Origin: Ignicoccus islandicus DSM 13165
GTDB taxonomy: Archaea > Thermoproteota > Thermoprotei_A > Sulfolobales > Ignicoccaceae
Reading direction: 5' to 3'
Assembly (NCBI RefSeq): GCF_001481685.1
Contig: NZ_CP006867.1
Span: 1,320,001 to 1,352,000 of the forward strand
Length of the DNA stretch: 32,000 nt
Shown: positions 8,407-29,817 of the stretch, piece after piece
Numbering within the stretch: the first letter of the stretch is position 1
Layout: each line of letters begins with the position of its first letter
Translations under genes and position numbers: made by a program
Notes under the pieces: model-generated
The model's input: only the letters and a program-made list of their open reading frames with translations
Told to the model about the DNA's origin: nothing
Databases searched by the model: none

Positions 8407-9096
8407 ATGATAACATTGATAGAGTTCCTTAAAGTTCTAATACAATACGCTTTACTGATTTCATTGCCATTATCCTATAATCTAACTCATTTAGACAATT
8501 ACATCGATGTACATCATATAACCGAATACTCGAACTATATTGTTAATGATTGCAAAATTTCCATACTTAGACTTTCTCCGGGTCGTTATATAATACCTCA
8601 AGCGAAAATTACTATTTTCGTTTCCCCTCAAATGCTGGCCTCACAGAAATCGTTCCTATTATCAAGTCTACAGAAATTACTGCAAAATAAATATGAGGTG
8701 TATTTAGTTAAACTGAGATGTCCGGACTATCCTCACTTAAACGACCTCCAATTAAGGAAATTCTTTAATGGCATCCTTAAGAGCCAAATATGTTATGGAT
8801 GGGGTCCTGAAGCTTACTATTGCGATTACGTAGATTCCATTATTAAGATAAGGGATTCGCCTATGGGCTCGTACGAACTCTTCTTGAATTCAACTCTATT
8901 AGATAGCTCCAAGGGTTCCCAACTTGCTATTAAGTACTTGATCAAAAGCGGTAAACTAAAGTCATTGGGCGTTTCCAGATGGATATACGTTAATCATCGC
9001 ACGTATGCGATTGGATCGCAAGTAACCCCTTCGCTCTTAGACGGTAATGTGGATGAGATATTTAGATTAGCGGATAAATGGTTATCGACAAAGTAA
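8407..9096 (+). CDS. hypothetical protein with N-terminal hydrophobic anchor/signal
   Basis: 229-aa ORF with ATG start. The N-terminal IEFLKVLIQYALLISLPL segment is hydrophobic. No family recognised. Confidence 0.4.
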   Translation: MITLIEFLKVLIQYALLISLPLSYNLTHLDNYIDVHHITEYSNYIVNDCKISILRLSPGRYIIPQAKITIFVSPQMLASQKSFLLSSLQKLLQNKYEVYLVKLRCPDYPHLNDLQLRKFFNGILKSQICYGWGPEAYYCDYVDSIIKIRDSPMGSYELFLNSTLLDSSKGSQLAIKYLIKSGKLKSLGVSRWIYVNHRTYAIGSQVTPSLLDGNVDEIFRLADKWLSTK

Positions 9097-9139: not shown

Positions 9140-11119
9140 TTGAAGAGAAGTGAACTGCTGAAGTACGTTGCCTTACTAACGCTTTTGATAGCATTAGCGT
9201 CAATCTCTGGTCAAGCATGGGACGATTACGTATTCATTGAATCTGCACGTCTACTTCTTCAAGGAAAGGATCCCTATGCATATTCTGATAGCATTAAGGC
9301 TTATGTAGTTGGTTTAGGGCCAATGTGGGTAACCTATCCTCCATTGCCGTTGCTCTTATGGGCGCTTTCGATTTCGCCGCTAGTCTTACTAAAAGTTCCA
9401 CTCTCATACTTATATTTACTCTTCATAAAACTTCCGTCAATCGTAAGTATACTATTTTCTATAACTATAGCAAAGAGGATGAACGCTAACTGGAAGATAT
9501 TGTTGTTAAACCCAATAGTAATAACCTCGATATTCATTCACGGTATGTTTGATTCCATCGTAGCCTTCTTCTTGTTACTTGCTCTCTACTTCCTTATAAG
9601 TGGAAAGGTTGAATACGGTGGGATTGCGTATGGATTAGCGCTATCCACGAAACAGCACGCTATTTTAGCACTCCTACCGATACTTTTCTATATTTATAGG
9701 AAATTTGAATCGCTTCGGATGATTTTAAGATTCGGACTAATGGCACTTGGAACTTTCGTCCTAATAATCTTACTTTACTCGTCTATATTCGGATTCAGTA
9801 ATTTAGAAGCTTTGTTCAGATCTATATTCCTCTTTCATTCACATAGACCCCCCAATTCGTTAGGTTTCGGTGGATTTGCTGTTCTGAACTTCTATTCTGA
9901 TGCTCTGTCTGGGTTCACTGGCAATACTGCAGTAGCACTAAGTATGGGCTCAGTTGTGGAGTTATACAAGGTAATTGATAAAGCGTCTCTACTATTCATT
10001 CCATCATATTTAATTCTATCTATCATTATTAGAGATCCCTTTGAGGGCGTACTTCTCGCGTATTTGGTTTATATACTATTAAGCTACGTTGGTGCTGTTC
10101 AACACTTAGTCGTTCCTGCTGTCCTTTATACCTTCGCATATCAATCTAGCCCGTTGTTAAGGAGGTATTCTAAGTTACTGATGTATGCATTTATTCTATA
10201 TTCGATCCAACATATATTGAGCTTCTGGGACTTGTTCCCAATGGTCGTAAACCCCTTATTCCTAAAGTCGTTCGGATTATGGTTGGCCAAGGTTTCCAGG
10301 ATCATAGATTACGTTTTCGAATATTGGGATGTGGTCCTTCGGATAATTGGTTCGATATCATTGTCCCTTGCTTTCATCTCACTAGTCTCATTCATTGTAA
10401 TGTACTTTAAGGATCATAGAAGGTATGCTTCGTACCTTGTAATTGGATCGTACATATTGGAATTAATAATACTCATTGCACTGGCTCCTAGCTTAACCCA
10501 TCATAATGAGATGAATGGAAATGAGATTGTGGAGGCGAAAGGTTGGTGTTTAATAGTACCTTGGGAGAACATGGAATATCCCGGGCAAATGTACGGAGAT
10601 TACATGTCGAAGTTCGCAGTTCCAATCTATGGCTACTATTCGTTTTCAAAACCTATCGCAGATAAACTAGTTCATGAGTTGAAGGGCAAATGTAACATCG
10701 GAATATTAGCTAGGTTAGATCTCTTTAGGGGGTATGAATACACGGATTTAATAAGCTCCTTGATCCAAAACAAAGTTAAGTACGCATGGGTATTGAGTCC
10801 AAATAATTACATTGACGGAGTTGGTAGCACTTCTCCAAACTCATTTAAACGCTTGTTGGAGGTGATAAGGGTAAATACACCCGTTAATGGATATTTCAAA
10901 CTAGGAGGTATCTTGGACATCTTAAACGAAACCTTAGGATTATTTAAGGACATTACATACTATGACGGTTATTATAAGTATAATGGAAAACCGCTATTGT
11001 TAATCTTAGGTAACCTATCTACTAGGGAACTAGAAATTATCGAAAAGTACGGTTTCGCCATTGACAGATTCAATGGCACTATTATAAATATTAGAGATAT
11101 GGAGCTATCCATATCCTAA
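9140..11119 (+). CDS. polytopic membrane protein, GT-C-like glycosyl/mannosyltransferase candidate, with C-terminal soluble domain
   Basis: About 12 or more hydrophobic segments over residues 1-450. An acidic motif (AWDDYVF) follows TM1, as in GT-C/DUF2029-type transferases. The soluble ~200-aa C-terminus is unassigned. TTG start. Confidence 0.5.
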   Translation: MKRSELLKYVALLTLLIALASISGQAWDDYVFIESARLLLQGKDPYAYSDSIKAYVVGLGPMWVTYPPLPLLLWALSISPLVLLKVPLSYLYLLFIKLPSIVSILFSITIAKRMNANWKILLLNPIVITSIFIHGMFDSIVAFFLLLALYFLISGKVEYGGIAYGLALSTKQHAILALLPILFYIYRKFESLRMILRFGLMALGTFVLIILLYSSIFGFSNLEALFRSIFLFHSHRPPNSLGFGGFAVLNFYSDALSGFTGNTAVALSMGSVVELYKVIDKASLLFIPSYLILSIIIRDPFEGVLLAYLVYILLSYVGAVQHLVVPAVLYTFAYQSSPLLRRYSKLLMYAFILYSIQHILSFWDLFPMVVNPLFLKSFGLWLAKVSRIIDYVFEYWDVVLRIIGSISLSLAFISLVSFIVMYFKDHRRYASYLVIGSYILELIILIALAPSLTHHNEMNGNEIVEAKGWCLIVPWENMEYPGQMYGDYMSKFAVPIYGYYSFSKPIADKLVHELKGKCNIGILARLDLFRGYEYTDLISSLIQNKVKYAWVLSPNNYIDGVGSTSPNSFKRLLEVIRVNTPVNGYFKLGGILDILNETLGLFKDITYYDGYYKYNGKPLLLILGNLSTRELEIIEKYGFAIDRFNGTIINIRDMELSIS

Positions 11120-11858
11120 GCAACGAATTGAACTCTAGTTCGTATTCAACTTTCATTGGTTTATCCTTACCAAAGGAAATCTTCGCCATTTCCGCAGCTT
11201 GGTATGCTCGGGACGCGTCATTCAAATGAGAAATAGAGTATTTAGCGTGGGCATCTGTATCTATATTTAAGGAAAGTAGCGGATTACCAATAGTTAGTAT
11301 AGCATCATACGATTTGTTAACTTCACTTGCATGAACCTTGATTTCGTTTGTCTCCTCGACAGCACTCAAATAGACCTCATCACCAACTACTTTCGCGTCA
11401 GCAACTATATCTCTGAAATCCTTAGGTTTCATTGAAAAGCTCGCTTCTAATTCAACGTCCGGTTCTCTCAGTTCCTCGCCGATTGAGAGTTCACTTGCCA
11501 AAATTTTGAATTCCCTTTCAACACTTGTCTTCTTATTTATGTATCTTATAACGAAGTATGGTGAGCTTGAATCGTAGTTTAGCTCGACGATGTCTTCACG
11601 TGTTGCTCTTTTTATAGCATTAGCCACTTCGCTTGAAGGTATTTCTACTAGGGCTTCCCCACCTTCTACATAGTATTCCTCGAACGATGTAGAGGTTAAT
11701 TCGAATACTATCATTAGGTTGTTGTCACTACTCATTTGCCTTATAGCTAGACCGTTTTGATCTATCTTTATTGGTAATGTATCGAGAAGTTTAACTATTG
11801 GCTGCCATATTTTCTTGAATTTAGTACCACTTGGATATACAGCGCGCAGTGTTACCAT
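11091..11858 (-). CDS. pcn: DNA polymerase sliding clamp (PCNA)
   Basis: MVTLRAVYPSGTKFKKIWQPIVKLLD... through ...KVEYELEFNSLLRIWIAPYL. Length, N-terminus and the C-terminal IWIAPxL match crenarchaeal PCNA subunits. I prefer the ATG at 11858 over the track TTG at 11894. The 3' end overlaps the convergent 9140-11119 gene by 29 nt. Confidence 0.9.
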   Translation of the reverse strand: MVTLRAVYPSGTKFKKIWQPIVKLLDTLPIKIDQNGLAIRQMSSDNNLMIVFELTSTSFEEYYVEGGEALVEIPSSEVANAIKRATREDIVELNYDSSSPYFVIRYINKKTSVEREFKILASELSIGEELREPDVELEASFSMKPKDFRDIVADAKVVGDEVYLSAVEETNEIKVHASEVNKSYDAILTIGNPLLSLNIDTDAHAKYSISHLNDASRAYQAAEMAKISFGKDKPMKVEYELEFNSLLRIWIAPYL

Positions 11859-11928
11859 ATTTCTAATTACACCGAATTCTAGTAGGTCTATCAAATTCTT
11901 ATTTTATTAGCCTCGGCCACGCGTTGGA

Positions 11929-12327
11929 ATGTGGGTAGATGTAATGGAAATTGAAGTGACCGTAGACATAGGAAAGTATAAATGGGTAAGGTTGCCTCGC
12001 GAAGACGCATTGAAGTTATTAGAAATAATTGAAACGAAACTTGGAGAGAGTCCTAGAGACTTACAAGAAGCAATGAGATACATTCGCCACTTCGATGAAT
12101 TCTATCAAGAGATGAAAAAGAGGTTTAAGGATTTCATTGCACCAACGCAATCCTTAAGTGACATGATTAAAGGAACTGTTGTTGTTGATAAGCTCTCACT
12201 AGAAAAGGAGGGAGGTAAAGATTACGTAACTATAGTATTCGACAGGAGGGTACCATTAGATGTGTTGAAGGAAGCACTGCAGGAAATGGGATACAGTGTT
12301 AGAGAGAAGGTGGAAAAAATATGGTAA
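11929..12327 (+). CDS. hypothetical protein
   Basis: 132-aa charged ORF. Its stop overlaps the next start (ATGGTAA at 12321-12327), which suggests translational coupling. Confidence 0.45.
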   Translation: MWVDVMEIEVTVDIGKYKWVRLPREDALKLLEIIETKLGESPRDLQEAMRYIRHFDEFYQEMKKRFKDFIAPTQSLSDMIKGTVVVDKLSLEKEGGKDYVTIVFDRRVPLDVLKEALQEMGYSVREKVEKIW

Positions 12328-12548
12328 GGGTATTGAGAGTAATGATTCACTCGTATGATAACGAGATCTTGGAAAAAGCTCTAGATTCTATTAGGAAAAC
12401 GTGTAATTGTGAACCTAAAATATCTAAATCAAAACTCATTCCAAATTACGCATTTGTAGAACTCCCATTAGTAATCTCACCCGATTCCGTTTCTAGGTTG
12501 TTAAAAGAATTAGGTATAGAGGATTTCAAGTTAGTTGTAATAGATTGA
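12321..12548 (+). CDS. hypothetical small protein
   Basis: 75-aa ORF coupled to the upstream gene. The sequence looks like a compact alpha/beta protein. It overlaps the convergent ATPase gene by 103 nt. Confidence 0.4.
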   Translation: MVRVLRVMIHSYDNEILEKALDSIRKTCNCEPKISKSKLIPNYAFVELPLVISPDSVSRLLKELGIEDFKLVVID

Positions 12549-13861
12549 ATTACTTCGTCTACGTCTAATCTAATCATCTTGATTCTTCCATTATGGAATT
12601 TCACAAGAGCTTCGCCTTTCCGCAGCAACGTAACGTAGCTACAGTAATCGCGTAGAGACGTACATATCCAATTATCTTTGTCTAACCTATTAAGTTTAAG
12701 TACAATCCAAGTGCCTATGTTACTCCATATCTCATAGCTTAGATCACTTGGGGACTGGGTTGCTACTATAAGACTTATTCCCTTACTCCTTCCTTCACGA
12801 GCTATTTCTTCCAAGAGGTTACTTTCTATAAGCCACGCTTCATCAACAACTATTACCTTCCTTAGATCTTTTGAAGGTTCCATATTTACTATTTCATCCA
12901 GAATATTCTCGATCACCCTGTTAATTTCTTCTTTTCTTAATGTAGAAGTCCCCTTAAATCTGTACACTTGCACCGGTATCTCCATTTCTCTTAATATATA
13001 CTCTAGGTCTCCTTTGGGATCTATTACTATCACGTTAACGTAGGAAAGGAGTAAATGTATTCTTATTATGAGTGAAGCTAAGATTGTTGTCTTGCCCATA
13101 CCAGTGCTTCCAATCACCCCTATGTGATGTCGTATACTGGTAGGTGGAATGAATTCTATGCGATTGGATTCAATGTCGATCCCTAAGTATATACCATCGC
13201 TTATTGTTGATTCAAGTGGTGGATTAGCTAAGGCTAGAGCAATGGAAGGTACTACTATTCCATTTTCCTTTACAACCTTCGGGTTAACCATCTTCTTGAG
13301 TTCTCTTGAATCGATGTCGCGTACTTGCGCTTTGAAAAGGCTACTCAACAAGTTTTTTAATGTATATTTCTCGGCTTCCAAGCGCTCTAAACCCCTTGAG
13401 TAGAGTAGGTAATTGATCTCTATTCTCGAAGGTAGTGTAGACGTGGAATAAAGCTTCAATAGTTTTTCTAAGTACCCTATTCTCAATTCTATTCTAATAT
13501 CAGTTGGATCGTTCATTTTTTGTACTTTTAAATGAGTTAATTCCCTCTCAATACTCTTTATAATAGATACCGGATCGATGCTTTTCTTTAGTAATCGTAT
13601 TTCCAAAGCTACGTCTAAATTCAATCTGTTTAAGAACTGAGTATACATTCTAATAATCTCGTCATACTCTTCAAGAAGTTTTACTGAATCTATATCTTCA
13701 ACTCTCAATCCCTTTACATATATAGGTCCCCTCTGAGTTCGTATACGAACAGTATTGGAATCAATTTCCTCAACAACCTTCTTTCTATTCTTAGGCTTGA
13801 TTCCACTTTTACATATAATGAATGGTGTAACAATGGCAACAAGTAGTTCTATTATTCCCAT
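12446..13861 (-). CDS. membrane-anchored FtsK/HerA/VirB4-superfamily P-loop ATPase
   Basis: N-terminal hydrophobic helix IIELLVAIVTPFIIC, Walker A IGSTGMGKTT, Walker B KVIVVDEAW, then AREGRSKGISLIVATQSPSDL (HerA/VirB4/DUF87-like). Confidence 0.75.
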   Translation of the reverse strand: MGIIELLVAIVTPFIICKSGIKPKNRKKVVEEIDSNTVRIRTQRGPIYVKGLRVEDIDSVKLLEEYDEIIRMYTQFLNRLNLDVALEIRLLKKSIDPVSIIKSIERELTHLKVQKMNDPTDIRIELRIGYLEKLLKLYSTSTLPSRIEINYLLYSRGLERLEAEKYTLKNLLSSLFKAQVRDIDSRELKKMVNPKVVKENGIVVPSIALALANPPLESTISDGIYLGIDIESNRIEFIPPTSIRHHIGVIGSTGMGKTTILASLIIRIHLLLSYVNVIVIDPKGDLEYILREMEIPVQVYRFKGTSTLRKEEINRVIENILDEIVNMEPSKDLRKVIVVDEAWLIESNLLEEIAREGRSKGISLIVATQSPSDLSYEIWSNIGTWIVLKLNRLDKDNWICTSLRDYCSYVTLLRKGEALVKFHNGRIKMIRLDVDEVIQSITTNLKSSIPNSFNNLETESGEITNGSSTNA

Positions 13862-13868
13862 TACGTTC

Positions 13869-15431
13869 TTACCACGTTCTTACAACGATCCTTTTAACAC
13901 CACCAGAGAGTAGCGTAGCTAAACTATAGATCGTTATCGATATAGTTGTTAAGTGTATGTATGGGATAGAAGCTAAAAAGAACGGCGCTAAAAGTATATC
14001 TGCAGTAGATAATTTCTGCTTAGAAACCCTACTCAGAAGTTGTAGACCCAGTTTGTTTGAGAGGTAACCTAGTTCGAAAAGGCTAGGTGGTGTAAAGCCT
14101 TTCTTTCTTCCATTTATTATAATATCGACCTCATTCCCTTTATCTACATCGAAAGTGACTTTCCAGACTTCTATGCCATTCCATAATTCATGTTCTAATT
14201 TACCATTCTTAACGTTGGATGAAAGATATATGCCGACAGTTTTTTCATCAAATATTCCCGAAAATGCTATTGAAACGCCTTGACAGTTCTCAAGAGGAAC
14301 GAACTTGAATCTCATTATTAAATAACCGTCTTGAGAGGTCTCAAACTTTGGTGGAGAAGTATAATAATATAAACTACAAGGTAAATAAATTGCTATTCCA
14401 GGATCGGGTACAATTAATCCCTTCACTTTTATTTTCGAGTTAGTGAGAATAGTGTTAGGGCTAACATAGATCTTCTTCCAATCTTCTTCAGATACATCTA
14501 TCTTAATACCAAGCAATTCCACTTTGATTTCAGAACGAGGCCAAGGAACACCACCTAGTGTATATGCGGTATCAAAGAAGCCTTTTGGATTCGTTGGATA
14601 TATTCCACATATTCCTTTTAAATCACAAAAATATACTAAAGCGTATGGAACGTGATTTCCCTGTTCATCCAAGAGAGTTCCTTGAAGGTAGAATACGTTA
14701 TAAGGTCCTCTCTCAAAGACCCCGGAGGCAATCATTTCAACGAAGTTAGCAATTGTTGGACTCATTGCTACAAATAATTTCATTATAGGTATAACGAGAG
14801 GCGTCATTACGTAAGTTACAACACCTAAAGAGAACATGAAAGCACCAGCAGATTTCGTAATTTTAAATGGAATACTCATGAGCAATATACCTATGGATAG
14901 GAATCCTGGAAGCAAGAGTTCCGATATTCTAGCTAAAATATAGAGAGCAGTCCAACTATAAACAGCTAACTTGAGGCTCGAAAGAAATATGTCTAGGAAT
15001 GGTCTCGTAAACAGATTATTGAAGACTTCGATACGCGAATACGCTACGTATAATGCCTCTAACACTTTCCCTAATGGAAACTTATTAAATACAGTTTTCA
15101 TTACCTTTGAAAGATAGTCTATAGTTATATAAGTAGATGCAATACCCTTATCTATCTCCAAGATTTCTTTGATATAACTTTCTCTATCCATTCCAATAAG
15201 AGCATAAGTTTTATCTAGAAACCATAATATTAGGAAGAAGGATGAAGTGAGTGTGAAAGTTGTGATAGAATCTGAAATGAGTATGGGGGCCCACCTTTTG
15301 AGACTTGGGAGGGGAAGTGGAATCGAATAGAGGAGGGTTCCTATAACGTACGTTAGAGCGGACAACGCGGCTGAAATTGCTAATATACCTAATATTAGGT
15401 CCATTAAACTCGAACCCTCCTTGTTCAACAA
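13869..15431 (-). CDS. polytopic membrane protein with large beta-rich extracytoplasmic domain and C-terminal anchor
   Basis: 520-aa ORF. It has about 6-7 hydrophobic segments in residues 10-240, a soluble Y/G/P/K-rich region at ~240-470, and a final hydrophobic segment ILLAPFFLASIPYIHLTTISITIYSLATLL. The next gene, the ATPase, starts 8 nt downstream. The start could be the Met at 15404. Confidence 0.6.
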   Translation of the reverse strand: MLNKEGSSLMDLILGILAISAALSALTYVIGTLLYSIPLPLPSLKRWAPILISDSITTFTLTSSFFLILWFLDKTYALIGMDRESYIKEILEIDKGIASTYITIDYLSKVMKTVFNKFPLGKVLEALYVAYSRIEVFNNLFTRPFLDIFLSSLKLAVYSWTALYILARISELLLPGFLSIGILLMSIPFKITKSAGAFMFSLGVVTYVMTPLVIPIMKLFVAMSPTIANFVEMIASGVFERGPYNVFYLQGTLLDEQGNHVPYALVYFCDLKGICGIYPTNPKGFFDTAYTLGGVPWPRSEIKVELLGIKIDVSEEDWKKIYVSPNTILTNSKIKVKGLIVPDPGIAIYLPCSLYYYTSPPKFETSQDGYLIMRFKFVPLENCQGVSIAFSGIFDEKTVGIYLSSNVKNGKLEHELWNGIEVWKVTFDVDKGNEVDIIINGRKKGFTPPSLFELGYLSNKLGLQLLSRVSKQKLSTADILLAPFFLASIPYIHLTTISITIYSLATLLSGGVKRIVVRTW

Positions 15432-15467
15432 ATATCAAGCTAAGGAGACCAGTGGGGTGATCGAAAG

Positions 15468-23408: not shown

Positions 23409-24422
23409 TTGGGATTGAAAACGAAGATTCTAACCTCTCACTCAGGAGGCTATCCGAGGCCTCCAGAATGGCGTAAGAGCATTGATGCTTATCAAGCCGG
23501 AAAGATAGATTACAAGGCCCTTATGCGGAATTGGGAACTCCAAACGAGCTCAGTTATATTTGAACAAATGGAAGAGAACATAGACATTCTAACCTCTGGC
23601 AACTTGTTTTGGGATGATCTATTCAGACCGTTTGCCAAAGCATGGGATGGAATGGAGCTACCTGAAGTTGGTGGATATTACAGGTTTTACGAGCTCAACT
23701 TCTATTACAAAAGGGCAATAGTCAATGGAGAAATAAGACCGACTTATCCAGTCCTATATCACGAACAGAAGTTATTAAAAGAGCTAAATGGAAGATCTTC
23801 TAAAGTAGTAGTTCCAGGTCCATTGACTTTTGCGTTGCATGTCGAAAACAAGTACTATCCGAACATTAAATCTCTTTTAAGAGATATAACCTTAGCGCTC
23901 GCAACGGAGCTTGAGATGGTTAAGGACTTCGTGGACTATATTCAAGTGGATGAACCAGCATTAGTTGATCCAGAGGTTAACGACGAGTTAAAGGGCCTTG
24001 CGATTCATTTCATTAATGAATTATCAGCGTTGACTGACGAGAAGAAGATAATAGTTAAGACCTATTTCAAACCAGCAACGGACATTTACCATCTAATAGA
24101 AGATCTGGAGGTTAGCGGGATAGGTTTCGATGCTGTAAGTTGGAATTATGAAGATATGAAGGAAACAGTATCCGAATACGGATATCCTTTCGATGTCCTA
24201 GATCTCGGTATCGGGGATGCATTAAATGTAAGACTTGAACCAGTCGAAGAAACCGTAGGTAAAGTAATAGGATTAATGGATGAAATAAAGGTTAAGGAAC
24301 TACATATCTCTCATAACTATCGACTTGATCTGCTACCCTATTCGCATATTCGAAAGAAACTGAGGAGACTTAGCGAGATAGTCATTAATCTAAGAAGACG
24401 TATTCTTGAGGAGGTGGAGTAA
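23409..24422 (+). CDS. MetE-like protein, non-catalytic (N-terminal-half-like) subunit of split cobalamin-independent methionine synthase
   Basis: Same fold signature as the next gene (HSGGYPRP..., [10 protein letters not shown]) but without the His-x-Cys and Cys zinc ligands. It is immediately upstream of, and overlapping, the catalytic half. Confidence 0.65.
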
Positions 24423-24423
24423 C

Positions 24424-25458
24424 GTGAGTAACGCATATAAAATACCCAAAGTACTACCGACCACTGTTGTCGGAAGCTATCCAAAGTTTCCCGAAGCTAA
24501 GAAAGCGTTAAAATTATATGAGAAAGGCGAAATAAGTGAGGAAGAATTCGAACAACTCATTAAGGAAGCGATAAGAAAGGCAGTTGAAGACCAGATTGAA
24601 GCAGGAATAGACATAATCTCTGATGGTGAGCAAAGAAGGGAAGATATGGAAGTTTACTTTGCAGAGCGTCTTGAGGGATTCGTGGTCGGAAACAATCCTG
24701 AAGATTGGGTTAGAATATTCGATAATGTACATTATAGGAAACCCATAGTAGTTGGTAAAATTGCTTGGAAAGGACCTATGACCTTAACCGATTGGAAATA
24801 TGCAACCGAATTCTCTCAAGGGAGACCCGTAAAGGCTATAATAACCGGGCCGTATACCATGGCTGACTGGGCCTTCGATAATTACTATGGCGACAAAAGG
24901 GAACTAATAATTGATTTGGCTAAAGCTCTACAGAAAGAGCTGAAAATTCTCTACGAAGCCGGAGCTAGATTCCTTCAAGTTGACGAACCGGCCTTATCAA
25001 CCCATCCCTACAAAGACGATATTGAAATAGCAAAGGAAGCGCTTTCCATAGTCTTTAGCGGAATGGAGGATGCTAAGAAAATAGTACATATATGCCATGG
25101 AAGAGTAGAGAAGTTATTCCCAGATATTCTAGATTATCCTGTTGATCAATTCGATTTAGAATTCGTAAATAACAACTTCAAATTACTTGAGGCAATAAAG
25201 GAATATGATTACGCATCTAGCGGAAAAGAGCTCGGGTACGGAGTAATAGACATTCACTCGAAAAAGGTCGAAACTAAGGATTTCATAAAGAACGCAATTT
25301 ATAGAGTACTTGAAATTATGCCACCAGAGAAGGTCTACGTCAAACCCGATTGCGGTTTAAAAATACTGGGTGATAGGGACATAGCCTTCAAGAAAATGAA
25401 GGTGATGGTAGAAGCTACAAAGGAGGTTAGAAAGGAACTCGGGTACGACGAAAGTTAA
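24424..25458 (+). CDS. metE: cobalamin-independent methionine synthase, catalytic (C-terminal-half-like) protein
   Basis: [35 protein letters not shown] (His/Cys Zn ligands) and VKPDCGLK (Cys ligand). GTG at 24424 is preceded by GAGGAGGTGGAG (SD-like), so I prefer it to the track start at 24406. Confidence 0.85.
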
Positions 25459-26117
25459 GCTATTTTGCTCCCATATATCTCGAGTAGCTGACACTTGTCT
25501 TTCAACTTTTTCAATCTATCTGATAGCTCAGTTAATGAAGTAACCTCTATTTCGTTCTTGCCAAATCCCATTTGGACTCTAGTTAGATCCGGACATATGT
25601 CTCCCTTTAGTACTATGTTGCAAGCATCACCGCTCAATAAACCTTCTATGTAAATACAAGTATCTCTCGTAGTCATATAAAGGAAATCAGTAATCTTCTC
25701 TATAGACTTCTTAGCTGCGAAGTGAACGTATGATGGTTTGAAAGTTAACGACTTCCTTGAAGGGATCGGCATTGAGACCCTTGCTTCAGGGTTATCTCGT
25801 AAATCAACCTCTATTTTCTCCTCATCTAGTTGAATTATCTCAGCTACGCCTTCTACAGAGACCAAGGCCCTTTGAAAAATATCGACAGCTTCCGAACCGC
25901 GTAGCGTTCTTCCCTTATAGATTACCTCTAATCCTATTATGACGTTTCTTAGTATTTCAACGTATATTGTAATAGGACTTCCGTCAAGAACTCCATCAAC
26001 TGAAATCCTTCCTACGAAATTCTCCGAACTCAGTTCTTCAATTAAATCGAGTAAGCTGTACTCTTGAGGCGAAACTCTCTTGAACCCTATGGTCTTTCCA
26101 GAACTTATGAATGGCAT
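25455..26117 (-). CDS. hypothetical protein with DUF4388/PATAN-like N-terminal module
   Basis: [62 protein letters not shown] resembles the DUF4388 pattern (L.dLlq.l....tG.L.v......i.f..G.iv.A......G.eAl). It is the last gene of the four-gene minus operon. By-eye assignment. Confidence 0.5.
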
Positions 26118-26123
26118 CTAATT

Positions 26124-26567
26124 TCACACCTCCTTGAGGTCTTCTATTATTTTATCGAAGTTTGGCGCGTTAGGTGATAAAATAAATAATGATACAACTG
26201 ATGAATCTTTTAAAATCAATATAAAGAGATGGTTCTGGAATTGATCCTTGCGTGTTTCAACGAAAGCCATTAACTCTTCCAATTCATCTCGGAGTGCCTT
26301 GAAGTACTGTGAATTAAAGTTCTCTATATCATTTAATAGGACTATTGAGGACTCATGTAGTACTATTCGAGGCTTTTCGTTTAAGATCTTTTCTTCTTTC
26401 GGTTTGACCTTATATCCAAGTAACTTGTATTTGAGTAATTCCTTTCTCCCATGAACCATTATTTTAGAGGTTAGTCTGCCTATTTCATCTAGTTCTTTAG
26501 CCATTTCCTCGATGACTTTCTTACTTTTCTCGATAAACTCTTCTGGACCGTGTGCAACTATTATCAT
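26124..26567 (-). CDS. hypothetical charged/coiled-coil-like protein
   Basis: 147-aa, K/E-rich ORF. It has a 4-nt overlap with the upstream gene and a 6-nt gap to the downstream gene. Confidence 0.45.
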   Translation of the reverse strand: MIIVAHGPEEFIEKSKKVIEEMAKELDEIGRLTSKIMVHGRKELLKYKLLGYKVKPKEEKILNEKPRIVLHESSIVLLNDIENFNSQYFKALRDELEELMAFVETRKDQFQNHLFILILKDSSVVSLFILSPNAPNFDKIIEDLKEV

Positions 26568-27301
26568 ATCTTAATGACCCCCGTAACTACTTCTCGTGCC
26601 TTATTGATAAGGTTCTCATCAATTACGAAATTGATTGGTGCACAGTAAGTTGGTTTAGAAAATGTTACTATCCACTTACCTGAGCTTCCAAGGGGGTATT
26701 GGAAGGCATCCACACCGTAGATCGCACCCACTTGTTCTGGCATAGTTAGAGAGGCACCTATTATCGTTTTATTACATTTCACTACATCCAATATCCATCT
26801 ATCGTTTACTGAGACTATATTATACGCTACATCTTCTTCCGATCCTAGGAGTTCTCTAAGTTCCGAAGGTGGATCAGGAACATCGAGTAACATACTTCCC
26901 CAATTATCCGTATCTACTGAAACGGACGAAGGTTCGAATAATTGAACTACCGGTATTACCGTGCCGTTCAAAACGAGCGCTTCTCTTACTCTTATTTCTT
27001 TAACTAGTGTTAAGAGAGATTCGGGCGATTCTAGTTTTATGTAGTCTGGGTCCATCATCTCTATGAATAGTTCCTCCGAACTCATCTTTATGAACGTTAT
27101 TTCTATTTTACTTGGAATTGAAAACGCCGCCAAGTCACCTTTGAATGCTATCGCTACACCATCTGTAATGAGAATATCTAGCGGTGGCCATTTTACATTG
27201 AGTCTCCCGCTTAATCCAGCACTCCTAATTTCTTGTAGTGCTTCGAAGAGCGTATTGAATTTCTTATAGAACGTGCCACAACTCCAACAGACGTTACTCA
27301 T
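26564..27301 (-). CDS. hypothetical protein with N-terminal CxxC and two DUF4388/PATAN-like modules
   Basis: The first module is MSNVCWSCG...LFEALQEIRSAGLSGRLNVKWPPLDILITDGVAIAF. The second is VNDRWILDVVKCNKTIIGASL...AIYGVDAF. By-eye assignment. Confidence 0.5.
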   Translation of the reverse strand: MSNVCWSCGTFYKKFNTLFEALQEIRSAGLSGRLNVKWPPLDILITDGVAIAFKGDLAAFSIPSKIEITFIKMSSEELFIEMMDPDYIKLESPESLLTLVKEIRVREALVLNGTVIPVVQLFEPSSVSVDTDNWGSMLLDVPDPPSELRELLGSEEDVAYNIVSVNDRWILDVVKCNKTIIGASLTMPEQVGAIYGVDAFQYPLGSSGKWIVTFSKPTYCAPINFVIDENLINKAREVVTGVIKI

Positions 27302-27307
27302 GGCTTC

Positions 27308-27877
27308 CTACCCTGGGACAACCCTTTTTACACCTAATGGAGAGAGGTATTCTAATGCGATTTCCTCAATACGACTCCAAGGCACATCTTCATTACTCTC
27401 TATTCTCAAAAACGCGATCTTCTTTTTCACTTGTAGACTGAAATCCGTTATTTCAATGCCCAAAGCCTCGAGACGATAAAGCAGACCTAGTACTGCTTTT
27501 CCTAAAGCCACAATACCAGCAGAGGAAATGTAGTGAGATTCCGTGTCAAATGTAATTAGAGAGTCGGCGGTCATTTCACTCAAGCTTGAAACTTCCGGTG
27601 GAGGCGCTGAGAACAAGACCGTGACTATATCCTTATCATCGCCTATTTTTTCAAAGAACTTGGAATATTCAACTTCGTTGCCATTTATTGTGGCTTTGAT
27701 AATTTCTCCATTACACATAATTAATATGCCAGAGTTCCCTTTCTTACTATTAAGAATAGTTATTTGAGTACATACTGAAGGCAACATATTTTCAATCGCA
27801 TTACGTATACACTTCAAGCTCCCACTTGAAAGACCGTAAGGAACTTGAGAACTCATAGGTGCATTCTTCCCCATCAT
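27308..27877 (-). CDS. hypothetical protein with DUF4388/PATAN-like module
   Basis: SLKCIRNAIENMLPSVCTQITILNSKKGNSGILIMCNGEIIKATINGNEVEYSKFFEKIG. It is the first gene of the minus operon, with a T/A-rich element directly upstream of the ATG. Confidence 0.5.
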   Translation of the reverse strand: MMGKNAPMSSQVPYGLSSGSLKCIRNAIENMLPSVCTQITILNSKKGNSGILIMCNGEIIKATINGNEVEYSKFFEKIGDDKDIVTVLFSAPPPEVSSLSEMTADSLITFDTESHYISSAGIVALGKAVLGLLYRLEALGIEITDFSLQVKKKIAFLRIESNEDVPWSRIEEIALEYLSPLGVKRVVPG

Positions 27878-27935
27878 GATTTTATTGAAATAAAAATAAA
27901 CTTAGTCATACAGTTAGCTTAGGGGTATAACAGTT
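27878..27935. promoter_or_regulatory. 58-bp AT-rich divergent promoter spacer
   Basis: gattttattgaaataaaaataaacttagtcatacagttagcttaggggtataacagtt. It has TATA-like A/T blocks facing both operons. Confidence 0.4.
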
Positions 27936-28547
27936 TTGGAAGGTGAAGGAAAGGAAACAAAGGGCGTGAGAAAGATTTCAACTACGACCGATATAATGAA
28001 TGCAATTAAAAACGTGGAACGGGGAATTGCAATACTCTTAGTACTTAAGAAGGACTTAACGTGGGAACGCTATATTTTACACATAGAGAATAAAAGGATA
28101 ATTTCCGGTGAACCCAAAATACCCTCTGAACGAGATTTGAAGGATTCATTAATGTCGCTTCTCGTCTTACCACGTGTCCGAATCATCGAGGAAGGAATCG
28201 AAAGAATGGTTGAAAGCGCGGGGCTTGACGTGGAGACCCTTCCGGAAGATGTGAAGAGGCTAGTTCAACTAATTCCGGGTATTGAACTGTTCATTCCAGA
28301 CAAGGAACTTGTGGAAGCTAACGTGAGCGAAACTGTTATCCCAATAAATGAAGTAGTGGACGAAGTCGTTAGGATAGTTGAGAACATGATTGAGGAAATG
28401 GGTCTCAAAGGTGAGGTAAAAGTAGTAAACAGAGAGTTAAATATTGTAATCAGTAAGAGGGTTCCGAAGAAACTGGTACAACGATTAGAAAAAGCTCTCA
28501 AGGCAAGGTTAGGCGATATGTATGAGATCAAAATAACTACGGGGTGA
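27936..28547 (+). CDS. hypothetical protein with DUF4388/PATAN-like module
   Basis: DIMNAIKNVERGIAILLVLKKDLTWERYILHIENKRIISGE. The start is uncertain: TTG at 27936, GTG at 27966 or ATG at 27996. Confidence 0.45.
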   Translation: MEGEGKETKGVRKISTTTDIMNAIKNVERGIAILLVLKKDLTWERYILHIENKRIISGEPKIPSERDLKDSLMSLLVLPRVRIIEEGIERMVESAGLDVETLPEDVKRLVQLIPGIELFIPDKELVEANVSETVIPINEVVDEVVRIVENMIEEMGLKGEVKVVNRELNIVISKRVPKKLVQRLEKALKARLGDMYEIKITTG

Positions 28548-28554
28548 TGTAGAA

Positions 28555-29469
28555 ATGATACTATTCTTCGGTAAGAAGAAGAAAAAGAGAGAAGATACTG
28601 TCATTGTAGGGGTAGAGAAGGATAACGTCTTCGGAACTATGAGTCCTAAAGGAGGAGTTGGAAAAACTAGCATAACTGTTGAAGTAGCATCATTAATTAC
28701 ACTCAAGGATATGTCAGTTGCACTAGTTGACTGGGATCTGTGGTCTCCTAGGCTCACGAGCAGGTTAATTGGAGTAAACGAAGGTCCTGGCCTCTTAGAA
28801 CTCCTCTTAGGTGAAGCAGAGCCTGACGAGGTACTCAGAAACGTCGATTTCACTACGACCTCCGGTAAATTAATTCGATTCAAAGTTGTGCCTGCTTCCG
28901 ATAAAGAGGCGTTAACCAAGGGCTTAATGAAGAGGTTAGCAACTGAATTGGAAGAAAAGTACGATGAGATAAAGGAAAGAGCAATTAATCTCTCGAATTA
29001 CTTAGCTAGTACCACTGACATCGTCTTTAATGATTATCCCGTACCAAGCGGCCCAGCTCCAGCTCCCTTCCATAAAATTGCAGCTAGCGCCACCCATTGG
29101 CTAAATATAGTCATAGATGCTGTCCCAACAACTGCGGAGTACGCGGCAAGATACGTAGAGATGTTCTACCCAACTCTCCCGATATTCATCGTATTCGTAA
29201 ACATGATAAGACCAGTTCATCACGAATATAGCGCGGCTGTTGCGAGAGCACCCGAGCTATGTAAGAAGTTCGCTGCTAAGTACGTAGCCTTCGTTCCATT
29301 CGACGGTAAGCTTTACGACGTAAAAGTATCTGGGGCAGCTCCCCCAGCAAGTATAAACTATAAGCCCACGGAGTCTGACGCTCTAAAAGTACTTCGAGAT
29401 GCTGCTATGAAGATAGCGCGTAGAGAGAACCCAGCTGGATGCGTTGCATTACACTTGAAAGTACTCTAA
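28555..29469 (+). CDS. MinD/ParA-family (SIMIBI) P-loop ATPase
   Basis: Deviant Walker A with signature lysine (SPKGGVGKTS), Walker A' (ALVDWDLWSP), a MinD-like GLLELLLGEAEPDEVL segment, and Walker B (DIVFNDYP). The N-terminal lysine-rich tail reads FFGKKKKKRED. Confidence 0.75.
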   Translation: MILFFGKKKKKREDTVIVGVEKDNVFGTMSPKGGVGKTSITVEVASLITLKDMSVALVDWDLWSPRLTSRLIGVNEGPGLLELLLGEAEPDEVLRNVDFTTTSGKLIRFKVVPASDKEALTKGLMKRLATELEEKYDEIKERAINLSNYLASTTDIVFNDYPVPSGPAPAPFHKIAASATHWLNIVIDAVPTTAEYAARYVEMFYPTLPIFIVFVNMIRPVHHEYSAAVARAPELCKKFAAKYVAFVPFDGKLYDVKVSGAAPPASINYKPTESDALKVLRDAAMKIARRENPAGCVALHLKVL

Positions 29470-29490
29470 TCTTAGAAATATTATAGGTAG

Positions 29491-29817
29491 GTGATTAGCG
29501 TGAATCAGTGGAAGGAAGAGATACGAAAGGTCCCCGGATATGAAATAGAATGGTACGCCGTGTTCGAAATTACTGAAGGTAATCTAGAATTGCTTGACAA
29601 GGAATCAGTCTCTATTGAGGTCCTACGTAAAATAGAGCCTATGGTAGCTAGTGTGATTCATGACTTAAAAGCCATTTCGGAAGCAGAACTGAGAGACGAA
29701 CCTATGGAGAAAAGGAAGTTAGACGTACTTGTTAATACAGAGAAAGGATTTATTAGTATGAGTTTAGTGTCCGATAGCATACTTGTAATCGCTTCACTGA
29801 GAAAGAAAGAATTTTAA
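29491..29817 (+). CDS. Roadblock/LC7 (MglB-like) domain protein, candidate
   Basis: 108 aa. EEIRKVPGYEIEWYAVFEITEGNLE ... LDVLVNTEKGFISMSLVSDSILVIASL fits the Robl_LC7 pattern (vpGv.ga.lv..dG ... vlveTekGyvvl......Lvvla). GTG start. Confidence 0.5.
   Translation: MISVNQWKEEIRKVPGYEIEWYAVFEITEGNLELLDKESVSIEVLRKIEPMVASVIHDLKAISEAELRDEPMEKRKLDVLVNTEKGFISMSLVSDSILVIASLRKKEF

Follow-up and report, generated by a model that had tools for sequence, protein, structure and literature searches.

A probable cedA-cedB gene pair of the crenarchaeal Ced system without an adjacent pilin gene in Ignicoccus islandicus

Two tightly linked hypothetical genes of I. islandicus

We analyzed a 32,000-nucleotide (nt) stretch of the chromosome of Ignicoccus islandicus DSM 13165 (contig NZ_CP006867.1, positions 1,320,001 to 1,352,000), hereafter called the window, in which a gene for a polytopic membrane protein is followed on the minus strand by a gene for a membrane-anchored ATPase. 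An earlier note on this DNA had raised the possibility that the two form a translocation module similar to Ced or Ted. Ced is a chromosomal, domesticated relative of type IV secretion systems (T4SS) that imports DNA from neighboring cells (PMC9905601, PMC11868833, PMC11823120). The upstream open reading frame (ORF) of the pair, 520 amino acids (aa) in its longest reading, is 100% identical to EYM_07610 and the 471-aa downstream ORF is 100% identical to EYM_07605, both of which are currently annotated as "hypothetical protein." Since both have conserved homologues, they are real genes rather than chance ORFs. The features of the pair are as follows (window coordinates).

13869..15431, minus strand: cedA-like ORF in its longest reading, 520 aa from TTG 15431
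13869..15404, minus strand: cedA-like gene, likely model, 511 aa from ATG 15404 (EYM_07610)
13862..13868, minus strand: spacer from the cedA stop to the cedB start, 7 nt (GAACGTA), operon-type coupling
12446..13861, minus strand: cedB-like gene, 471 aa, ATG start (EYM_07605)
15405..15467, no strand assigned: divergent intergenic region between cedA and the PAPS-reductase/ferredoxin gene, 63 nt, with an A/T-rich TATA-like stretch (GATATTTG) and a GGAGG motif

The ATG at position 15404 is most likely the true start of cedA because the NCBI model and all homologues start at this codon and a GGAGG sequence is found 11 nt upstream. The TATA-like stretch upstream of cedA is a putative promoter. As the earlier note had stated, the two genes are co-directional and separated by 7 nt. 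Across the Ignicoccus loci they are separated by a gap of 4 or 7 nt or share a 7-nt overlap, a close arrangement that indicates co-translation.

Predicted architecture of the two proteins

The membrane protein was modeled with AlphaFold2 from a four-sequence alignment (mean predicted local distance difference test score, pLDDT, of 74), and its overall architecture agrees between the model and hydropathy analysis. Both reproduced the layout described previously, namely a two-helix hairpin, further hydrophobic segments, a beta-rich insert of ~230 aa and a C-terminal anchor. Residue numbers below refer to the 511-aa form.

15189..15404, minus strand: pilin-like (CedA1/VirB2-like) two-helix hairpin, residues 1-72 (AlphaFold2 helices 2-27 and 38-70; loop P-x-P...KRW)
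14709..15188, minus strand: helical membrane core, residues 73-232 (AlphaFold2 helices 74-226), homologous to Sulfolobales CedA/CedE
14085..14708, minus strand: all-beta ectodomain, residues 233-440 (AlphaFold2 strands 237-434, pLDDT about 85-90), two beta-sandwich modules
13872..14084, minus strand: linker helices, C-terminal anchor (467-500) and basic tail GGVKRIVVRTW (hydropathy and AlphaFold2; two short helices precede the long one)

The hairpin aligns with CedA1 proteins, and its residues G22, P29, K36, and D45 are invariant. A loop of the core, PF(K/R)xx(K/R)xAGA, is likewise conserved, with P179, F180, G187, and A188 invariant. The beta region is the best-modeled part of the protein, the membrane core having a pLDDT of about 65-80. 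Its first module is transthyretin/carboxypeptidase-regulatory-like, and a Foldseek search with the whole beta region returned generic beta-sandwiches only, such as the transthyretin-like domains of carboxypeptidase and teneurin, the BcpA pilin, and SlaB of Sulfolobus. Four cysteines are conserved in the Ignicoccus ectodomain, including the invariant pair C260/C266. Neither the ectodomain nor the C-terminal anchor had a match in Pfam or NCBIfam at E-values up to 10, and on this ground we rejected the ideas that the anchor is a homologue of Sulfolobales CedA2 and that the ectodomain is a known domain.

The positive charges of the membrane protein are located in the hairpin loop (PLPLPSLKRW), the PFKITKSAG loop, and the C-terminal tail. 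Following the positive-inside rule, these three segments would be cytoplasmic and the beta region would lie on the external side of the cytoplasmic membrane. Two observations on related proteins, which are described further below as long CedAs, support this topology. The C-terminal tail is basic in all 36 examined, and N-glycosylation sequons are concentrated in the beta region of those from outside Ignicoccus (1.55 per 100 aa vs 0.12 elsewhere in the protein). Sequons are rare in Ignicoccus ectodomains, with none in the window protein and one to three in those of loci L001-L003 (0-3 overall); outside this genus they number up to 12, in L020.

The ATPase (AlphaFold2 model, pLDDT of 73) is organized as follows.

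13808-13861, minus strand: N-terminal transmembrane helix, residues 2-18, the sole hydrophobic helix (hydropathy and AlphaFold2)
13202-13786, minus strand: alpha/beta N-domain, residues about 30-182, CedB-like (AlphaFold2)
12536-13201, minus strand: FtsK/HerA/VirB4-type (RecA-type) ATPase domain, residues 224-442, followed by a disordered tail (AlphaFold2)
13088..13111, minus strand: Walker A motif GSTGMGKT, invariant in the ATPase alignment
12833..12850, minus strand: Walker B motif VVDEAW, with D340, E341, A342, and W343 invariant in the ATPase alignment

The single N-terminal helix and the motifs GSTGMGKTT, VVDEAW, and ATQSPSDL reported for this protein are all present in its sequence, and the REGRSKG and TQSPSD segments are also invariant among its relatives. 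Its Pfam matches are DUF87, AAA_10, TrwB_AAD_bind, and FtsK. The best Foldseek match of the model is TrwK/VirB4 of the R388 T4SS (8rtb_A, 2.7e-13), followed by HerA and FtsK. A 75-aa ORF on the plus strand (window 12321-12548) converges on the ATPase gene and overlaps its last ~100 nt, which encode a tail predicted to be disordered. This ORF is also called in the closest relative (L002) and is uncalled in the more distant Ignicoccus loci.

Matches to Ced protein families

Among NCBIfam models, the membrane protein matches CedA best (NF041796, E-value of 1e-23, residues 15-214 of the 520-aa reading against positions 6-185 of the 259 in the model), with CedE (8e-18) second and CedA1 (NF041797, 2e-3) third, the last through the hairpin (residues 10-64). 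Its precomputed Pfam family is PF27251, "CedA1." The best match of the ATPase is CedB (4e-28), and the alignment of residues 68-319 with model positions 94-351 includes the N-domain. Weaker matches were obtained with anti-phage HerA (1e-13), CedD (NF053655, 9e-12), repair HerA (4e-9), and plasmid VirB4 (TIGR00929, 5e-5). All Ignicoccus homologues show a similar pattern of NCBIfam matches.

The earlier note had left Ced and Ted side by side; the Ced half of that proposal stood, through the profile matches, operon orthology, the structural match to VirB4, and the co-conservation of the two genes, and the Ted half did not. The Ted system of Thermoproteales (TedA/TedB/TedC) has the same three-part VirB6/VirB4/VirB2-like logic, and its components have no recognizable sequence similarity to those of Ced (Beltran et al., PMC9905601). 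Because the window proteins match Ced families directly, we assign the pair to Ced rather than to Ted.

The N-terminal hairpin had been viewed as a pilin-like element possibly fused to the channel protein in this particular case. This was not borne out. The N-terminal part of CedA and almost the entire CedA1 pilin are homologous (Beltran et al. 2023, PMC9905601), and the profile of the long-CedA family matches the Ced pilin of Aeropyrum pernix (8DFU) via its N-terminal hairpin with an E-value of 3e-4. The hairpin is therefore an ordinary trait of the CedA family, and a novel fusion was ruled out by its publication for CedA and its occurrence across the family. The relationship of CedA with VirB6 is also published, from HHpred and AlphaFold comparisons (PMC9905601, PMC11868833), and genetics showed CedA and CedB to be essential for DNA import in Sulfolobales, with ced genes also occurring in Desulfurococcales (PMC9905601, PMC11868833, PMC11823120).

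The ATPase shares an FtsK/HerA-superfamily core with HerA of the HerA-NurA system, and it could in principle be a HerA-type repair helicase that acts with a membrane partner in DNA end resection. The Pfam match to DUF87, the "HerA central domain" (5.5e-9), and sequence matches to HerA structures in the PDB are in line with such a role. However, these matches do not extend beyond the ATPase core that the proteins share (residues about 240-430), and HerA models score only 25-36 bits. Unlike HerA, the window ATPase has an N-terminal membrane helix, a different, CedB-like N-domain, and a membrane-protein partner. Moreover, the same genome encodes a canonical HerA of 593 aa (HerA_Thermprot, 408 bits, E-value of 6e-122) next to NurA, outside the window, and this HerA scores just 47 bits against the cedB-type profile. 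The separate HerA-NurA pair and the core-only matches rule out that the window ATPase is the HerA of HerA-NurA, and we find the repair-helicase explanation scarcely credible. The canonical herA gene is divergent from that of NurA (355 aa) and is found at L042:5882-8742 (about window positions 32590-35450), that is, ~0.6-3.5 kb past the window end and about 19 kb from the ced pair. Neither Mre11 nor Rad50 was seen among the called genes of this L042 HerA-NurA locus.

Long CedA proteins and their operons outside Ignicoccus

An exhaustive profile search of 1.84 billion representatives recovered 153 relatives of the membrane protein, of which 149 were examined. Most are 450-500 aa long (94 of 149), and the short forms, of ~260 aa, correspond to Sulfolobaceae entries that bear the name "DNA import protein CedA." The same plan recurs in 94 of the 108 representatives with 430 aa or more: the hydrophobic core spans ~190-220 aa and is followed by ~230 aa of non-hydrophobic insert and by a C-terminal anchor. 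Judged from these sequences, the ectodomain and the extra anchor are the majority CedA architecture outside Sulfolobales. The large insert, which had seemed foreign to CedA in the earlier reading, is thus usual for the family, and the idea that it is an Ignicoccus oddity was discarded on the same count. Outside Ignicoccus, the insert is similar in sequence mostly within its first beta-sandwich. We found no discussion of the long-form CedA ectodomain in the Ced literature searched.

We also scanned one genome per species and obtained 35 loci (L004-L038), with no Ignicoccus contig among them. They come from Desulfurococcales, Pyrodictiaceae, Staphylothermus, Acidilobaceae, and related metagenome-assembled genomes (MAGs), and their long CedAs have 461-501 aa (for example, L010:5998-7437 and L033:5968-7368). 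In all 35, a small gene (67-121 aa) lies directly upstream of the long cedA, and a homologous ATPase gene lies directly downstream in all 30 loci with enough contig. The small gene product matches the A. pernix Ced pilin 8DFU at 2.4e-25 and scores 123 bits with the NCBIfam CedA1 model, for a cut-off of 100. It is a true CedA1, and the operon reads cedA1-cedA-cedB. In a phmmer search, the window ATPase scored 52-83 bits with the operonic ATPases, 40-45 bits with bacterial DUF87/HerA proteins, and 28-30 bits with CedD-like proteins.

The Ignicoccus pair resembles the Ced loci of Desulfurococcales and Acidilobales (A. pernix type) in having a chromosomal gene for a long CedA with hairpin, core, ~230-aa ectodomain, and anchor, followed by one for a membrane-anchored CedB-type ATPase. 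It differs from them in the lack of an upstream cedA1, in a CedA core that is about 30 aa longer, and in a compact ATPase (471 aa vs 439-628 aa, most being 549-628 aa) without the insertion between Walker A and Walker B found in these relatives. The window proteins share about 20-27% identity with them. The Sulfolobales system (CedA, CedA1, CedA2, CedB, CedD, and CedE) has a homologous CedA core, hairpin, and CedB ATPase, but its CedA is about 260 aa long, without ectodomain or extra anchor, and its cedB is unlinked to cedA, unlike in Ignicoccus. CedA2, CedD, CedE, Ups pili, and TFB3-dependent induction by ultraviolet light belong to the Sulfolobales system (PMC11868833, PMC11823120), and no counterpart of them was found in the Ignicoccus sequence analyzed. 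A. pernix is reported to produce its Ced pili, which are of a lipid-containing type, also when not treated with ultraviolet light.

Some of the Pyrodictiaceae and Desulfurococcales loci carry, about 4 kb ahead of cedA1 and in the opposite orientation, a gene for a second, CedD-like ATPase (L010:1726-3693, L012:1726-3684, L021:982-1995, L025:716-2698, L030:969-2798, and L034:710-2692). Those of L010 and L030 match NCBIfam CedD best (1e-25 to 1e-28), and the copy in L025 scores best to CedB. Fragments with cedA1-cedA were also found on short contigs of a Nitratiruptor sp. MAG (L032, 3.6 kb) and a Woesearchaeota MAG (L036, 1.1 kb), which most likely reflect mis-binning and not real transfer.

Conservation and inheritance within Ignicoccus

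The pair is kept together at the same site in six assemblies, namely I. islandicus, a close MAG, I. pacificus, another MAG, and two I. hospitalis-like genomes. The shared block consists of PAPS reductase, cedA, cedB, an ORF of 128-132 aa, PCNA, and a membrane protein of 650-675 aa. I. hospitalis KIN4/I carries the long CedA WP_011998750.1. Identity across Ignicoccus is 55/39/31/29% for the ATPase and 69/42/33/31% for CedA, as compared with 76/64/59/60% for PAPS reductase and 81/56/49/48% for PCNA. Hence, cedA and cedB are the fastest-evolving genes of the block, with the same species order of divergence as their neighbors. All regions of CedA are conserved among Ignicoccus species, the second ectodomain module being the most variable. 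This divergence pattern fits vertical inheritance under constraint.

These data also bear on whether the pair could be the remnant of an integrated conjugative element or of a plasmid T4SS, reduced to VirB6 and VirB4, instead of a host system. Its components are homologous to VirB6, VirB4, and VirB2 (PMC9905601; Foldseek match to TrwK/VirB4), and the G+C content at the pair (0.365) is slightly below that of some flanks. This value is nevertheless inside the range of the window, and the pair occupies an identical housekeeping position in the six assemblies down to about 30% protein identity. The neighboring genes in the window are of housekeeping type, including those for PCNA, Pth2, a PAPS-reductase/ferredoxin fusion, and aspartate-semialdehyde dehydrogenase among others, and no integrase, relaxase, plasmid, or other element gene was found among the 30 window ORFs scanned against Pfam, in agreement with the setting described by the earlier note. 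The best matches are to chromosomal Ced families, with the plasmid VirB4 model far behind. Synteny and gene content therefore largely rule out a mobile-element origin, which we consider very improbable. The comparison with conjugative T4SS of bacteria (VirB6/TrwI, VirB4/TrwK, and VirB2; R388, 7o41 and 8rtb) points to shared parts, the best match of the ATPase model being TrwK/VirB4, and a relationship of Ced with the VirB2-like hairpin and VirB6-like channel has been published (PMC9905601). Unlike these systems, the Ignicoccus pair is chromosomal and host-owned and is not accompanied by genes for VirB3, B5, B7, B8, B9, B10, B11, D4, or a relaxase. Transfer by Ced is also in the direction of import, unlike that by bacterial conjugative T4SS (PMC9905601, PMC11868833, PMC11823120).

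With its established homology, orthology by operon position, intact catalytic motifs, synteny, vertical inheritance, and domain architecture, the Ignicoccus pair is in our judgment probably orthologous to the cedA-cedB core of the crenarchaeal Ced system.

A missing pilin gene and other points against a complete Ced system

Ced itself is an already known kind of machine, and the Ignicoccus pair is ordinary for its archaeal group except for the missing pilin gene. The absence of an adjacent cedA1 is the one real peculiarity of the Ignicoccus locus, and the observation that no pilin gene is visible was the only part of the earlier description to set this locus apart. We searched for cedA1 by six-frame scans with a CedA1-specific hidden Markov model (HMM), in which positive controls were detected at about 1e-40. 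The gene adjoins cedA in none of the six Ignicoccus loci and in all 35 loci elsewhere, and the 63-nt region upstream of I. islandicus cedA is too small to hold it. Two small ORFs of the window encode candidate two-helix proteins, both far from the pair and neither matching the CedA1 HMM. No candidate was added when the region was enlarged by about 14 kb. A combined CedA and CedA1 profile searched against a set of 5.8 billion proteins returned four Ignicoccus CedAs only, in a search whose word filter was saturated by hydrophobic words, and the small matches of the exhaustive search were all CedA fragments, with no separate pilin.

Several results weigh against our assignment of the pair to a working Ced system. 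Apart from the CedA hairpin, the six-frame scans detected no cedA1 beside the pair or within ~46 kb around it in I. islandicus, nor in ~17-21 kb at each of the five other Ignicoccus loci (L001, L002, L003, L039, and L040), and no CedD-like ATPase was found within the same ~46 kb. The window proteins score far below the NCBIfam equivalog cut-offs (84 vs 330 bits for CedA and 98 vs 700 bits for CedB). No VirB6 entry was among the top 50 Foldseek matches of the full-length CedA model, in which the ectodomain dominated the matches, and we found no Ced experiments on any Ignicoccus in the literature searched. Ignicoccus cells have two membranes with a wide intermembrane compartment and no surface layer (S-layer), so the Sulfolobus model may not transfer to them. 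The genus is not known to have a genetic system.

Some of these points can be qualified. Long CedAs and ATPases from operons with bona fide CedA1 are likewise below the cut-offs (132-155 and 32-102 bits, respectively), and the NCBIfam cut-offs for CedA and CedB therefore seem to delimit a Sulfolobales subfamily. In Sulfolobales the ced genes are scattered, with cedB and cedD away from cedA1-cedA-cedA2 (PMC11868833), which makes a cedA1 elsewhere in the 1.39-Mb genome plausible.

The missing pilin gene could also mean that the Ignicoccus Ced kept the CedA channel and the CedB motor and truly lost the CedA1 pilus, a prospect to which we give a limited chance. The hairpin and the ectodomain of CedA, facing the intermembrane compartment, would in that event replace the pilus, either to take up DNA through the inner membrane or to move other cargo. 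A related explanation holds that the pair is a functionally diverged derivative of Ced, working without a conjugative-type pilus. Such a derivative might carry DNA or some other macromolecule through the inner membrane, to or from the intermembrane compartment, or might rely only on the CedA hairpin and ectodomain. The contrast in cedA1 between Ignicoccus and the 35 other loci, together with its absence from the ~46 kb around the pair, favors this explanation, as do the position of the pair as the fastest-evolving genes of a syntenic block, the scarcity of ectodomain sequons in Ignicoccus relative to their frequency elsewhere, and the unusual two-membrane envelope of this genus. However, the dispersal of ced genes in Sulfolobales (PMC11868833) makes a distant cedA1 quite possible, and the CedA hairpins of Ignicoccus do not resemble CedA1 more closely than those of the other group do (14-20 bits in both). 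On balance, a pilus-independent derivative seems rather improbable to us.

Other genes of the window

A 132-aa soluble protein is encoded between cedB and the PCNA gene (window 11929-12327, plus strand). It has no Pfam match, its position is constant across Ignicoccus, and its identities of 87/67/70/70% are above those of PCNA. The PCNA homologue (window 11091-11894, minus strand) may be a divergent paralogue, as its matches to Pfam PCNA domains are weak (E-values of 2e-6 and 2e-5). Next to it are genes for a 659-aa polytopic membrane protein (9140-11119, plus strand) and a 229-aa protein (8407-9096, plus strand), both without a Pfam match. They are kept beside PCNA in all Ignicoccus loci, with lengths of 650-675 and 213-230 aa, respectively, and the 3' end of this gene pair overlaps the PCNA gene.

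Five soluble ORFs without a Pfam match (220, 147, 245, 189, and 203 aa) are clustered at window positions 25455-29817, together with a ParA/MinD-type ATPase (28555-29469) and a 108-aa ORF outside the Pfam scan. Because none of these proteins is hydrophobic, they are not pilin candidates. Two adjacent and overlapping genes (23409-24422 and 24406-25458, plus strand) both match domains of cobalamin-independent methionine synthase, corresponding to a split or duplicated MetE.

Proposed working and significance

The following working of the pair is proposed from its homology with the Sulfolobales system and from the A. pernix Ced pilus (PMC9905601, PMC11868833, PMC11823120). CedA (511 aa) would serve as a VirB6-like membrane platform or channel, under which CedB, tethered by its single N-terminal helix, may form a VirB4/HerA-type ring. 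ATP use by CedB would drive assembly, passage of DNA, or both, with DNA as the likely substrate and import as the likely direction. For the Ignicoccus pair, the DNA substrate, import direction, topology, oligomeric state, and any induction by DNA damage are matters of inference. The ectodomain of ~200 aa is predicted to be held by the extra C-terminal anchor at the outer face of the cytoplasmic membrane. In Ignicoccus, this face is turned toward the intermembrane compartment. In relatives with an S-layer, the ectodomain might, speculatively, form a base or collar for the CedA1 pilus.

With our assignment, two genes so far called "hypothetical" and conserved in all Ignicoccus genomes examined receive an annotation at the level of function. 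The long CedA, with its two-module ectodomain and extra anchor, has no domain model in the copies of Pfam and NCBIfam searched, and structural models of Ced based on the short Sulfolobus CedA should allow for this long form. If the pilin is absent genome-wide, Ignicoccus would be a natural test case for the need of a Ced pilus in a two-membrane cell. Should the pilus have truly been lost, the pair would represent a natural minimal T4SS-derived machine adapted to the double-membrane envelope of an archaeon.

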